A stretch of 64,000 nt of DNA. Origin: a virus. Of this stretch, positions 4,940-33,708 are shown piece after piece. Position 1 is the first letter of the stretch. Each line of letters begins with the position of its first letter. The stretch lies in IMG/VR virus record IMGVR_UViG_3300033485_000002, positions 64,001 through 128,000 of that record; one strand, given 5' to 3'. The position numbers and the translations under genes are program-made. A model generated the notes under the pieces. It worked only from the letters and a program-made list of their open reading frames with translations, ran no database searches and was not told the origin of the DNA.

Positions 4940-6193
4940 ATGGCTAATCTTACTCCCATCTACGATCACAATTGCACGCTCTGCCCCTTACATAAAGTGC
5001 CGGGGGTTACTTGTTTGTCCGGGATCGGCAACCTGGACGACCCGAGCATCCTTATAGTGGGGGATGGGCCGTCGAAGCAGGAGGTGCTGCTTGGTCGGGC
5101 GTTCGGCGATGAGCGGGGTAGGCTGCTCGCTCAGTCGCTCGATGAGATCGGTTTCCCCATCGGGCCTAAAGGCGATGTGTTTGCTACCTACGCCGTTAAG
5201 TGCTTCCCGTCTGGTAAGGTAAAGGTTAAGGATGCCAAGATTTGCGCGGCGAAGTATCTCAACCAGGAGATCGACCTTTTCCGCCCGAAGTTGGTTATAG
5301 CGCTGGGTAAAACCGCCCAATATGCCGTCTTGGGTAGTACTGCACCTATCTCTAAAACTAGGGGCAAGCTGTTCCCCTTAGTTCGTACCGACGCAGCAGG
5401 AAATGAGTGGACAACCCAGGTCATGCCGGTGGATCATCCATTCTCTATCCTCACCACACCGGCCAAGCTGGACCCGTGGCTCGCTGATCTGCGGCGGGCT
5501 AAGGCGGTGTTTTATGGCGACGGAAATCCTTACTGGTCGCCGGAGAAGCTGGAGCGGTTTGACTTTAAAGTGATTGATTCTATCGCGCAGTTCAAAGCAG
5601 TTGCACGGGAGCTTATTGCCAAGCACAGGGGCGAGTACCTAGCTATCGACATTGAAGCTAGTGGTGTTGATGAGGCTATGAACGATGATGACTTTCGGGT
5701 TTTCAGCTTGCAGTTCGGGCTTATAGATTTGGAGGGGCGCGAGGAACATCCGGTCTACTTCCTACCCATCCAGTCGGCGGGGTTCCCGTGGACATCTGAG
5801 GCTAAGTGGCTGGATAATACCGCCCGCCTGCTGAATCGGTTTCTGAGCACGGACTACTTCAAGCTGGTGGGGCATAACCTAAAGTACGATTTGAAAGCGC
5901 TTAGACGGATTGGTGTAACTGAAGCATATGCCGTCTATGACACGCTGATGGCATGGTCAATTGCACATGGTGAAGCACCGTTGTCTCTGAAAACAATTGC
6001 TTACGAGGTTAGTGATTTAGGTGGGTACGAAGTCCTTATGGATCAGTACTTTAAGGAGCACGGTACTTATGACGCCCCCCCCGAAATTCTAATCTCGTAC
6101 AGTTGCCTTGATGTTGTGCTTGTGCGCTACCTTTTTAGTGAGCTGTACAAAACGATCCTTCAAGAGAAAAAGCGTGTTAACATTGGAGTATGA
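4940..6193 (+). CDS. Uracil-DNA glycosylase family 4-like domain fused to DnaQ-like 3'-5' exonuclease (N-terminal half of split DNA polymerase A)
   Basis: CTLCPLH, IVGDGP, AVKCFP...C, LVIALG and HP motifs (UDG-4); ExoI DIEASG, ExoII GHNLKYD, ExoIII YSCLD. Confidence 0.85.
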   Translation: MANLTPIYDHNCTLCPLHKVPGVTCLSGIGNLDDPSILIVGDGPSKQEVLLGRAFGDERGRLLAQSLDEIGFPIGPKGDVFATYAVKCFPSGKVKVKDAKICAAKYLNQEIDLFRPKLVIALGKTAQYAVLGSTAPISKTRGKLFPLVRTDAAGNEWTTQVMPVDHPFSILTTPAKLDPWLADLRRAKAVFYGDGNPYWSPEKLERFDFKVIDSIAQFKAVARELIAKHRGEYLAIDIEASGVDEAMNDDDFRVFSLQFGLIDLEGREEHPVYFLPIQSAGFPWTSEAKWLDNTARLLNRFLSTDYFKLVGHNLKYDLKALRRIGVTEAYAVYDTLMAWSIAHGEAPLSLKTIAYEVSDLGGYEVLMDQYFKEHGTYDAPPEILISYSCLDVVLVRYLFSELYKTILQEKKRVNIGV

Positions 6194-6197
6194 GCTA

Positions 6198-6267
6198 TTG
6201 TCATGGCTGGGTGCGGTGTGGCGAGGCCAGGTAGGGTATGGCATGGTGTGGCTCGGCAAGGCAGGGG
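6198..6267 (+). ncRNA. Orphan gapped-guide (VIPR-like) unit: TTGTC-AT followed by 12 perfect GGY-NN pentamers
   Basis: ggc tg/ggt gc/ggt gt/ggc ga/ggc ca/ggt ag/ggt at/ggc at/ggt gt/ggc tc/ggc aa/ggc ag; same TGTC handle as the array at 32.75-33.4 kb. Confidence 0.75.
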
Positions 6268-6293
6268 AGCCTCGGTTTAGTAAGGGGGTCTAA

Positions 6294-7778
6294 ATGATTC
6301 GGTTCCATTCGGATGCCGAAGGCGGTAGTCCTCGGTGGCTGTGTGATTATCAGTCTCTATTGGTCAATGCTTTTGTCGATATTGAGAGCTGCGGTTTTCC
6401 TTTCGATCCTATTCAACATGCACAGTTTATCGAGAATGCCGAACGTACTTATGCCGAGTACGAACGGCGATTGATGACCAGCCCCCAACTGCAAGCCTAC
6501 ATCCAGCAGAAGGGGCTGCCCGCTACGGGTAAACGGGCGTTTAACCTGTCCTCGGCCACCCAACTCCAGGAGTTCCTCTTCAGCCCGCGTAGTTCAGGGG
6601 GCCTGGAGCTTGTACCCGTAAAGCGCTCTAAGCTGACGGATAAGGCTAGTTCCGACCGAGAGTCCTTGCAGCATTTCGCTCAGGCAGGCAACGCTTTCTG
6701 CTCGGATCTATTGGTGTTACGGAATTTCGGTAAGCTATTGTCGTCGTTTGGTGAGCCGCTCTTAAAGTTCTACTGTCCTCGCACCGGAGCAGTTCACCCG
6801 ACCTACTTCCTGGCCAAGGTGACAGATAGTGCTGGGGTTGCAGGCGGTACTGCGACCGGACGGCTGTCGTGCAAGCACCCCAACATGCAGCAGCTACCGA
6901 AGCGGGATAAAGATGACAAGGGAATTGGGCTGGCGGGGATCGACGTGCGGAAGTCCTTCGTGCCGTTTCCGGGCCACATCCTTATAGAGTGCGACCAGAG
7001 CCAGATCGAGGTGCGGGTCGCCGGGATGTACGCTAAGGATACGACGATGGGTAAGTTCTTCGATGAGGGGGGAGACTTCCACATCCGGGTGGCCTCTCAG
7101 GTGTTCCAACAGGATTTCGATCATATGGTCGAGGTGTTGGCGAATGAGCACCATCCCGAGTACAAGAAGTTCAAGCAATTCCGTACTGCCGCTAAAACCT
7201 TTACCTTTGGTCTGATGTTCGGTATGGGGTTGAATAAGCTGACCAGACAATCCGGGTTGACTGAGGCTGAAGGTAAAGCTTTTATCGATGAGTACTTTGC
7301 TACTTTCCCTCAGTTCGCTTCGTGGCGTGAGGAGATGATTGATTGGGCTACCGAGCACGGATGGGTCCAAACCTTATTCGGGCGTAAAAGAACCATAAAG
7401 ATTAGCGGCTATGAAACGGAGGATGGTCGGGAGGAACGCATTGGCATCAACACTCCGATTCAGAGTGCGGCGGCAGATATTACTCTGTTTGCGCTCAGCC
7501 GGTTGTGGGAGTTCTTGAAGGCCAACGGTTACGGGGCAAAGATTCTTGGCACGGTCCATGACTCTATTATCTTCTCGGTGCCCTACGAGGAGTTCGAGGA
7601 GCTATTACCGGAGATAGCCCGGAGGATGATCCGTCCACCTGGGCTGGAGTGGCTTTTGGATGACGTGCCGATTCCCCTGTCGATTGGCATTGAGGCGGGG
7701 CCTAACCTCAAGGATATGCACAAGTTAGACCTCGATGACGTGCTGACCTGCTCCCTCGACGTAAAGGATTATCTATGA
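6294..7778 (+). CDS. polA: DNA polymerase family A, polymerase domain
   Basis: TATGRLSCKHPNMQQLP, motif A DQSQIEVR, motif B RTAAKTFTFGLMFG, NTPIQSAAAD, motif C TVHDS. Confidence 0.95.
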   Translation: MIRFHSDAEGGSPRWLCDYQSLLVNAFVDIESCGFPFDPIQHAQFIENAERTYAEYERRLMTSPQLQAYIQQKGLPATGKRAFNLSSATQLQEFLFSPRSSGGLELVPVKRSKLTDKASSDRESLQHFAQAGNAFCSDLLVLRNFGKLLSSFGEPLLKFYCPRTGAVHPTYFLAKVTDSAGVAGGTATGRLSCKHPNMQQLPKRDKDDKGIGLAGIDVRKSFVPFPGHILIECDQSQIEVRVAGMYAKDTTMGKFFDEGGDFHIRVASQVFQQDFDHMVEVLANEHHPEYKKFKQFRTAAKTFTFGLMFGMGLNKLTRQSGLTEAEGKAFIDEYFATFPQFASWREEMIDWATEHGWVQTLFGRKRTIKISGYETEDGREERIGINTPIQSAAADITLFALSRLWEFLKANGYGAKILGTVHDSIIFSVPYEEFEELLPEIARRMIRPPGLEWLLDDVPIPLSIGIEAGPNLKDMHKLDLDDVLTCSLDVKDYL

Positions 7779-31476: not shown

Positions 31477-32259
31477 ATGGTACGTAAGAAGAAAGAAGCG
31501 GTCGCCGAAAACGAAGAGATCCAGGTGTTTAAGGTCGAAAGGGGGGAAGTGTCGTACTGTGTTTTGGGTCTTACTCCACTGATCACGGAAGCGATGAGCG
31601 AGAAGGTGAAGCGGGAGCTGTTGCTGCCCAAGGGCCGTAAGACCGCTGCCGACAAGGCGGGCACGGCCAAGCACGATGTGCTGGAGGAGTACCGCAACAG
31701 CACCTATCAGGCGAAGGACGATACGTCTCCGACTCGGATCGTGATTCCGTCTACTGCCTTCAAGGGTGCGCTCAGGGACGTGGCGACCGATATCCCCGGT
31801 GCCGCAAAGGCGCAGATCGGTCGGTTGGCGTTTGTTAAGGGCTACCATATCCCCGTGTTCGGGGTGCCGCAGCTCATCATGTCGGTGGTTCGTAACTCGG
31901 ACCAGAACCATACTCCTGACATTAGGACTCGGGCGATCCTGCCTCGGTGGGCCTGCTATCTCACGATCGAGTACACGATCCCGCTGTTGAATGATGTTGT
32001 CGTGACCAACCTGCTGGCCGCTGCTGGCCTGATGCGGGGTATTGGTGGTTGGCGTCCGCAGAAGGGGGCTGGTGACTTCGGGCAGTTCACGCTCGTTGAC
32101 CAGGACAACCCCGAGTTCTTGGACATCGTTGCCACTGGTGGGCGTGAGCCGCAGGATCTGGCGCTGGCCGATCCTGAGTGTTTCGATAGCGAGACGGTGA
32201 ACATGCTGTCGTGGTTCATGGCGGAAACCAAGCGGCGTGGTCTCAAGGTTGTGAGCTAG
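31477..32259 (+). CDS. Cas7/RAMP-like (Vipr-like) RNA-guided effector protein
   Basis: RAMP hallmarks: G.TPL in the first strand, IPSTAFKGALRD, C-terminal G-rich loop AG..RGIGGWRPQKG.G.FGQF; directly upstream of the pentamer array. Confidence 0.8.
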   Translation: MVRKKKEAVAENEEIQVFKVERGEVSYCVLGLTPLITEAMSEKVKRELLLPKGRKTAADKAGTAKHDVLEEYRNSTYQAKDDTSPTRIVIPSTAFKGALRDVATDIPGAAKAQIGRLAFVKGYHIPVFGVPQLIMSVVRNSDQNHTPDIRTRAILPRWACYLTIEYTIPLLNDVVVTNLLAAAGLMRGIGGWRPQKGAGDFGQFTLVDQDNPEFLDIVATGGREPQDLALADPECFDSETVNMLSWFMAETKRRGLKVVS

Positions 32260-32747: not shown

Positions 32748-32752
32748 CCGAC

Positions 32753-33404
32753 ATTGTCACGGTTTAGCTGTCAAGGTACGATCGGGATTGTTCGGGTTTG
32801 TCAAGGAAAGTCAAGATCTGGCGCGGTCGGGTGAGGCTGTCGTGGTTCGGTCAGATCCGTTCAGGGATGTTAGGGAAAGATATGGTGTGTTCTGGTGGGG
32901 GAAGATTCGGATGGGCAAGGTGAGGCTGTCCAGGTAAGGTTCGGTGGGATGGGGCGTGTTACGGCGACTTAGGGTTAGTCATGGGCAGGTTCGGCTGTCA
33001 CGGTATGGCACGTTAGTTTCGGGTTAGTCAAGGACGGGAACGGTGCGATCAGGTCTGATCCGGTCTGACTGTCACGGTACGTGTCGTAGGGTAGGAAAAG
33101 GCAAGGCTCAGCATGTTAGGGTTCGGTGAGGCTAGGCTGTCACGGTGTCGTGAGGATGGGACCGGCAGGGCCGGGTTCGTTGCTGGCGTGGCATATTTTG
33201 GCGGGGCTTGGCTGTCATGGTGATTTTTGCGTTCAGGCGTGATTGGGCCTGACAGGATTCGATTAGGCAGGGCCGGGTAAGGTTTGGCTGTCACGGTGGG
33301 ATATGGACGGATCCGGAAGGGAGAGATGCGTTCTGGCGGGGTCTGGTGGGGCTGGGTGAGACCGGGTGGGACGAGATTTGGTAAGATCCGGTCAGGTCTG
33401 ACTG
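32753..33404 (+). ncRNA. Gapped-guide (VIPR-like) array: 8 units of (G/A)(G/A)CTGTC-NN handle plus G-led pentamers
   Basis: Handles at 32766, 32835, 32924, 32993, 33067, 33135, 33210 and 33286 (spacings 69, 89, 69, 74, 68, 75, 76, i.e. 9+5n with small indels); 5-nt periodic G between handles. Confidence 0.85.
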
Positions 33405-33411
33405 GTATGTT

Positions 33412-33487
33412 GGGGGAGTAGCCCAACGGTAGAGGCGGAGGACTTAAAATCCTTTCAGTGTGGGTTCGAATCCCACCTTCCCCACCA
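33412..33487 (+). tRNA. tRNA-Leu(TAA), short variable arm
   Basis: GGGGGAG/CTTCCCC acceptor stem, GAGGA-CT-TAA-AA-TCCTT, GTTCGAATC, CCA. Confidence 0.9.
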
Positions 33488-33497
33488 ATGTGCTAAG

Positions 33498-33568
33498 GGG
33501 GGTATCACTCAGTGGCCGAGTAGCGGGCTTTTAACCCGCCTACCAGGGTTCGATTCCCTGTGCCCCCA
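33498..33568 (+). tRNA. tRNA-Lys(TTT)
   Basis: GGGGGTA/TGCCCCC acceptor stem, GCGGG-CT-TTT-AA-CCCGC, GTTCGATTC; no encoded CCA. Confidence 0.85.
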
Positions 33569-33708
33569 CTTTTGGAGCTAATATGGACGAGCTTAATCAA
33601 AATGTTGAACGGTTGCTGTGGATCTGGAGTCTGCTCTGCCTCAGCGTAACTGTAGTGGGTTTGTTTATTTGGTGGATAGGGAGATATCGTGATAAGTAGG
33701 AGATAGGA

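Follow-up and report, generated by a model that had tools for sequence, protein, structure and literature searches.

The stretch of DNA analysed here, hereafter the window, comprises 64,000 nt (positions 64,001 to 128,000) of IMG/VR record IMGVR_UViG_3300033485_000002, the 168,260-bp genome (52.5% GC) of an uncultured freshwater or wetland phage. In it, a gene for a 260-aa RAMP protein is followed by an ORF of 159 aa, by a non-coding stretch of about 660-664 nt built of G-led pentamers and by genes for tRNA-Leu and tRNA-Lys, all on one strand (Table 1). The Foldseek PDB matches listed for an AlphaFold model of the 260-aa protein (pLDDT 81, pTM 0.78) were without exception Csm3, Cas7 or Cas7-11 RAMP chains (86 at E ≤ 1e-3, best 8e-6), and an invariant Gly-rich stretch (G184/G188/G190/G197/G202) stands out in the alignment with its homologues, which number 1272 by word-index search and 3031 representatives at E ≤ 1e-3. 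Neither CRISPR-type repeats nor cas families were found in the neighbourhood of the gene.

Table 1. Features of the locus and of related arrays (positions are those of the window unless another locus is named)
Feature	Position	Strand	Basis or description
vipr, lone RAMP (Cas7/Csm3-like) protein, 260 aa	31477..32259	+	Fold model, Foldseek, alignment
vap-like accessory gene, 159 aa	32268..32747	+	Synteny with vipr; phrog_15946 match
Staggered vrRNA array	32748..33411	+	8 guide units, 9-nt junctions (G/A)GCTGTCNN, 5-nt G periodicity
Unit 1 guide	32770..32839	+	14 pentamers, both junction pentamers counted; 3' end decodes L-A-R-[DE]
Unit 2 guide	32839..32928	+	18 pentamers GTCGT...GGCTG; core of 16 pentamers, 32844-32923
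tRNA-Leu(UAA) and tRNA-Lys(UUU)	33412..33569	+	ARAGORN, Rfam; abut 3' end of array
Single guide unit	6195..6290	+	TTGTCATGG then 13 GGNNN pentamers; inside split family-A polymerase (PolA)
GGCNN array, Mycobacterium phage Mattes	L001:2130-2390		Actinophage array
GGCNN array, Gordonia phage Ecliptus	L003:3112-3340		Actinophage array
GGCNN array, Gordonia phage Pipp	L002:3153-3385		Actinophage array

The product of the 159-aa ORF matches phrog_15946 (E 3.5e-14) and has no Pfam match; an ORF of 159-163 aa follows the RAMP gene in four metagenomic or MAG contigs (L008-L011) and in every copy of the phage. Pentamer arrays adjoin the RAMP gene in all eight loci examined, namely the window, these four contigs and three actinophages, Mycobacterium phage Mattes and Gordonia phages Pipp and Ecliptus. 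The actinophage RAMP homologues (Mattes gp52, Ecliptus gp19, Pipp gp42) are 27-29% identical, and the GGCNN arrays that adjoin them are long; that of Pipp carries a protein-coding annotation (gene 43) which is probably wrong. No Escherichia phage was present among 30 tblastn matches at E ≤ 0.01.

These are the components of VIPR systems, in which a minimal RAMP protein (Vipr) is joined by an accessory gene (vap) and by vrRNAs built of 9-16 GGY/NN pentamers; each pentamer is bound by a single Vipr protomer, the GGY being hidden and the NN presented, and the resulting filament recognises double-stranded DNA reading NNxNNx, the '1-nt skip'; natural targets are mostly coding, lie on either strand with the skipped base on the wobble position, and belong to rival phages, prophages and satellites (bioRxiv 10.64898/2026.04.26.720920, 10.64898/2026.04.26.720927, 10.64898/2026.10.15.759431). 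The present locus is of this recently described kind, as identified here from its sequence and a predicted fold: the RAMP gene, whose product by model and alignment has the RRM core and the glycine-rich loop, stands alone, outside a CRISPR-cas locus, vap lies next to vipr, and the associated array is one of tandem GGY/NN pentamers, with more than the minimum of four, if the second scaffold position is relaxed. A text search of the first VIPR preprint returned none of the words Mycobacteri, Gordonia or Actino.

Architecture of the array

The array is rich in G (41%) and poor in C (16%), and its G residues give one sharp periodicity peak at 5.0 nt (power 4.1, against less than 0.7 at other periods), the highest 5-nt G periodicity of the whole virus record. 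Among 75 in-register pentamers from units free of indels, position 1 was G in 97%, position 2 was G, A or T and never C, position 3 was T or C in 84%, and positions 4-5, the NN, were hypervariable (0.04 and 0.02 bits). Eight copies of a constant 9-nt junction, (G/A)GCTGTC plus two bases, occur at 32768, 32837, 32926, 32995, 33069, 33137, 33212 and 33288, and each moves the pentamer register by one; in the form GGCTG/GTCNN, one G is common to the neighbouring units.

Internal register slips of 1-2 nt, such as a TTTTT slot or an extra T, are found in units 5-7 (33076-33285) and are absent from units 1-4 and 8; the former may be guides in decay, or their irregular repeats may be tolerated. The last guide has 22 pentamers and ends 8 nt short of tRNA-Leu (33404-33412), and 5' processing of that tRNA could release the 3' end of the last guide or of the array. 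The array sequence was identical in four other samples, and the phage recurs in several JGI, ENA and Logan samples, among them JGI 3300009167, 3300009091 and 3300009111, ENA ERZ27228602, ERZ27257599 and ERZ27267272, and SRR8191145 and SRR15532681. Elsewhere in the window, the single guide unit within the split PolA is flanked by the exonuclease ORF (4940-6193) and the polymerase ORF (6294-7778) of that gene.

Several other readings of the array were dropped in favour of the published VIPR system: an iteron origin or a pac site, a sponge for a TRAP/CsrA-type protein, an array of two-tetrad G-quadruplexes and an antisense rut site. The 12-mer GGCTGTCACGGT resembles the mycobacteriophage L5 stoperator; we treat this as a coincidence, as the motif clusters only in the array, where it marks the unit junctions.

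Decoding of unit 2

The first-pass annotation of this DNA had read 17 NN dinucleotides from positions 32835-32923 and translated them as codon positions 1 and 2. We recovered the same series exactly, in pentamers running from 32839 (GT TC CA CC CA AT AG AA AT GT CT GG AA TC TG AA GA), and the translation is correct, with the addition that TG also permits a stop codon. Reading the NN in this manner is the published 1-nt-skip rule, so the decoding is not numerology. The peptide obtained is V-S-[QH]-P-[QH]-[IM]-[RS]-[KN]-[IM]-V-L-G-[KN]-S-[CW]-[KN]-[DE]. Its first NN is GT, from the junction pentamer GTCGT, whose G is at the same time the last base of the preceding GGCTG. This NN seems to be part of the unit 2 guide, to which it was assigned because it decodes to a Val that is invariant there in the matching family.

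With one base skipped after each, the 17 NN correspond to the turn and recognition helix, (G)VS...I..I..GK.WK, of an HTH present both in HNH homing endonucleases and in phage HTH proteins that are small and stand alone. The decoded peptide has all the conserved columns of the C-terminal half of this HNH-type HTH (V, S, I, S, I, G, K, W, K), including the Trp-Lys after G-K-x which, in an alignment of eight members, is a signature of the family. The domain itself (PHROG 59, 20467, 4629 and 517, with a weak match to Pfam HTH_7) is the predicted target and not an element of the array.

To score this likeness we used a profile of eight phage HNH-endonuclease HTH segments, from Escherichia, Vectrevirus, Bacillus (two), Pectobacterium, Gordonia, Acinetobacter and Aeromonas phages, from which the seed gene described below was excluded. 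The sense reading of unit 2 scored 34.7 bits, aligned exactly at the V of G-V-S, a value reached by none of 5000 shuffles of NN order on both strands (3.7 ± 3.4 bits, maximum 19.6), and all other units and orientations scored 14 bits or less. Scores per column were positive at 15 of the 17 positions, among them V, I, I and W, which are invariant, and G and K, which are nearly so; Pro4 and Leu11 scored negatively and are atypical for the eight HTH members sampled. Since the seed that led to the family has the same sequence as the guide's second half, the score of that half is inflated, and we therefore scored the first eight codons separately, only this first-half statistic being independent, with a selection factor of about 10-fold. 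In fixed register these eight codons reached 15.1 bits, against a null of -6.9 ± 4.5 (P = 5e-6), which withstands the 10-fold correction for choice among seeds.

The same relationship was apparent in the DNA. NN identity between unit 2 and the eight phage HTH genes in fixed register was 16-24 of 34 (47-71%), where 8.5 (25%) would be expected, and a scan of different skips across these genes exceeded shuffles at skip = 1 alone (20.4 vs 17.7 ± 0.34), skips of 0, 2 and 3 remaining at the null. The published rule is thereby checked independently, and in a clade that is divergent. The first-pass annotation had likened the peptide both to XRE-like regulators and to HNH-endonuclease-associated domains; the second half of that comparison is borne out by the profile score, while the first is not, the decoded peptide having no Pfam family. 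An HTH interpretation of unit 2 is thus supported by these comparisons for the HNH type.

Searches for the target

In the phage's own genome the best site for unit 2 matched 20 of 32 bases, equal to the maximum for shuffled guides and hence at chance level, and no homologue of the seed HTH was found there. Self-regulation of a phage gene, proposed in the first-pass annotation, is consequently unlikely. Nothing real was found within the 64-kb window with the full 16-NN pattern and up to three mismatches, and an exact scan of IMG/VR with the same pattern gave no match. When the guide was divided, its two halves returned 19 and 4 seeds in IMG/VR, all of which extended at chance (18-21 of 32); in JGI metagenome contigs NN1-11 had no matches and NN8-16 had nine seeds, all at chance; and in GTDB genomes NN1-11 again had none. 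Two degenerate patterns informed by the family had no matches in IMG/VR.

Ten seeds were found for NN8-16 in the GTDB genomes. Nine were at chance, and one extended to 25 of 32 core NN bases (78%), or 27 of 34 with the 5' GT. This site, the best natural one, is a 54-aa HTH ORF ending ...FGVSATMIRLIVLGKSWKEA on a 38.8-kb Thermodesulfobacteriota MAG contig (JBMORA010000066.1). The ORF matches HTH DNA-binding and HNH endonuclease families of PHROG (E 2e-4 to 1e-3) and Pfam HTH_7 (E 0.009), and among the 40 records listed of its 138 tblastn relatives in cultured phages most are annotated as HNH or homing endonucleases. The runner-up for unit 2 on the contig, at 21 of 32, is a second HTH paralogue that no seed had pointed to, and none of the other array units had a site above shuffles there. 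The surrounding patch (L056:4266-5932) is phage-like: after a gene resembling small terminases (phrog_4102, 4e-24) come two short HTH genes, both of the HNH-associated class. In a set of 5.8 billion proteins, the seed HTH protein had no word-sharing relatives of similar or greater length.

A search of 401 genomes from the class of the seed genome, allowing up to three mismatches over 24 bases, added two matches, both outside HTH genes. VIPR papers use an 80% NN match as the threshold for a target, and no site attained it in IMG/VR, JGI metagenome contigs or GTDB (exact sub-patterns) or in the 401 genomes (up to three mismatches). The gapped search put forward in the first-pass annotation, covering databases and the phage's own genome, yielded a near-target and no site of 80% or more; the top natural match does lie in an HTH gene, and not outside HTH-coding sequence, where it would have spoken against that annotation.

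Profile searches with the decoded peptide returned no Pfam family at E ≤ 10, nothing in PHROGs and, in the PDB, only a chance 7-mer in DDX5. A Pfam-type search also missed the integrase-like decoding of unit 8 (see below), from which it follows that such searches have low power for decoded peptides as short as these.

Other guides and the possibility of tiling

Unit 8 (33295-33404) decodes to G-[IM]-R-P-[RS]-[DE]-A-L-G-L-G-[CW].., which is like box I of tyrosine recombinases. An exact seed of eight of its NN found integrase genes reading GMRPSEALGL in three of nine IMG/VR loci (L046, L047 and L052); total identity in these loci was 25-26 of 44, so these genes are not the target of unit 8.

Placed exactly three codons ahead of the Val of GVS, the last four core NN of unit 1 (L-A-R-[DE]) fit the 'LA..' that closes helix 2 in nine of nine HTH genes, matching 3-6 of 8 bases as against 0-3 at neighbouring registers. 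Together, units 1 and 2 (32770-32928) would account for a run of about 32 codons, order and register being preserved, with a gap of one or two codons at the junction. As the 3' end of unit 1 matches codons upstream of GVS in all nine genes, the two units appear to tile one gene. By our own estimate (p ~0.02, for L and A at a fixed register with three registers allowed) this is suggestive only. According to the decoding of the first-pass annotation, units 6 and 7 may tile a recombinase gene in the same fashion, in antisense. The general proposition, that guides next to each other in an array tile an uninterrupted stretch of one target gene in order and in register, is one we hold to be doubtful. 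Were it true, guides would be written codon by codon from the target gene into pentamers, that is, VIPR acquisition would be templated and guides would not originate singly; another possibility is cooperative binding of adjacent filaments. The apparent tiling of adjacent guides offers a testable hint on how VIPR guides originate.

Alternative explanations

It may be that unit 2 is a real guide whose likeness to an HTH is coincidental, its true target being unrelated, or that it is a decayed or orphaned guide without a living target. The absence of a target at 80% or more from every collection scanned is in keeping with this, as is the failure of the Pfam, PHROG and PDB profile searches to return anything relevant for the decoded peptide alone, the latter being tempered by the low power of searches that missed unit 8 as well. 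Coincidence is nonetheless unlikely in view of the seed-independent first half of the guide, the agreement of eight unrelated phage genes well above chance and the confinement of the signal to skip = 1. If the HTH likeness is accepted, the target might still be a temperate rival's XRE/Cro-type repressor (Pfam HTH_3) instead of an HNH-type HTH. The segment V-S-Q-P-x-I-S-x-I also resembles helix 3 of HTH_3. At the position that decodes to Val in unit 2, HTH_3 usually has Glu, and the decoded G-K-S-W-K fits the invariant Trp-Lys of the HNH-type family. Moreover, HTH_3 and related Pfam families miss the decoded peptide, whereas in a positive control a genuine 26-aa fragment of the window's XRE-like gene matched 15 Pfam HTH families. 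A repressor would have precedents, in that published natural VIPR targets include lysis-lysogeny regulators, with an XRE/Cro-type repressor for the VIPR clade of P. fulva; for unit 2 we consider it decidedly unlikely.

Two further readings place the target outside HTH genes altogether. In antisense, unit 2 begins S-[FL]-[HQ]-[DE]-[FL]-P-[RS]-T and would be directed against box II of a tyrosine recombinase (H-x-L-R-H/R-T), in company with the integrase-like units 3 and 6-8, recombinase motifs having been decoded from other units and box I genes found with the seed of unit 8. The codon for the catalytic Arg of H-x-x-R, however, decodes to Pro (CC, not CG), and the residues after Thr depart from the x-A-S/T that usually follows it in box II. 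The antisense reading scores 2.4 bits on the HTH profile on which the sense reading reaches its 34.7, and the first-pass annotation, which had found it the poorer fit, was right in this; we regard it as very improbable. We give least credence to the idea that unit 2 is aimed at the N-terminal strand of rival vipr genes, or that it regulates a gene of the phage itself. VIPR-on-VIPR targeting has been published, and the best peptide match among 120 Vipr homologues was 9 of 18 residues at one conserved site (V..G.I.FCVLG[NK]S), a value reached by 4 of 300 shuffles. Yet this is not significant after correction for about ten tests, the family-invariant Pro34 and the two residues after it are mismatched, and DNA-level matches to eight vipr genes were at chance (15-20 of 36). 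The site of the peptide match, with its VLG[NK]S core, is at 31477-31570 of the window and at residues 16-33 of P0011. Regulation of an own gene is opposed by the lack of a site above chance in the phage genome.

Proposed function and significance

We conclude that unit 2 is probably one vrRNA guide of a phage VIPR system, with a gene for an HNH-type HTH in a competing element as its target: since its NN spell the turn and recognition helix of that HTH, such a gene is the one most likely intended. To judge from the guide and the genome searched with it, the carrier would most likely be a competing phage, a satellite or a homing-endonuclease cassette in the same freshwater or wetland host, and not the phage itself. 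By analogy with the VIPR preprints, the array and the vipr-vap genes would be transcribed together and the transcript cut at the junctions into eight vrRNAs, each of which Vipr would coat with one protomer per pentamer, sequestering the G-led triplet and presenting the NN. The NN of the filament would then pair with double-stranded DNA reading NNxNNx..., and binding of the unit 2 filament would be expected to block transcription of the HNH-type HTH gene in the competing element.

The first descriptions of VIPR date only from 2026, and just a few clades have known natural targets. The uncultured 168-kb phage studied here adds a clean staggered array of eight guides in which the 1-nt-skip code can be verified from sequence alone. 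The HTH common to HNH homing endonucleases and small phage DNA-binding proteins is a target class that is not known to be named in the three VIPR preprints, and a text search of the first of them did not find the word 'homing'. Guides resembling recombinases sit in the array beside the HTH guide. If guides against homing-endonuclease genes prove common, VIPR would constitute a phage defence against the selfish endonuclease cassettes of co-infecting relatives.

Comparison with known systems

The locus resembles published VIPR systems in its lone Cas7-like RAMP gene, the adjoining small accessory gene, its phage setting and the non-coding pentamer array, and further in the combination of a conserved G-led triplet with a hypervariable NN and in a 1-nt-skip code whose skipped bases fall on wobble positions. 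As in those systems, the phage's own genome has no target site above chance, and the guides decode to sequences that resemble MGE genes (recombinase, DNA-binding regulators). The overlap of units by one nucleotide is that of the 'staggered' VIPR arrays (fig. S18), in which neighbouring vrRNAs overlap to the same extent. There are also differences: unlike the type II SUSP1 VIPR clade, the array has only a 9-nt constant junction and no structured 3' tail of about 40 nt or pseudoknot, and its scaffold, G[GAT][TCA], is looser than the strict published GGY, although the VIPR paper permits 'a related consensus'.

Beyond VIPR, the closest parallel is with the crRNA-Cas7 filaments of class 1 CRISPR systems (type III Csm3, type VII Cas7), which share the RAMP fold, provide the best structural match, and likewise have one protomer per RNA repeat and bases flipped out periodically. 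Unlike those systems, the locus is devoid of CRISPR repeats, cas genes and acquisition genes. The period also differs, being 5 nt with 2 pairing bases in VIPR as compared with 6 nt with 5 in class 1 CRISPR, and the activity that the VIPR papers describe is silencing of double-stranded DNA.
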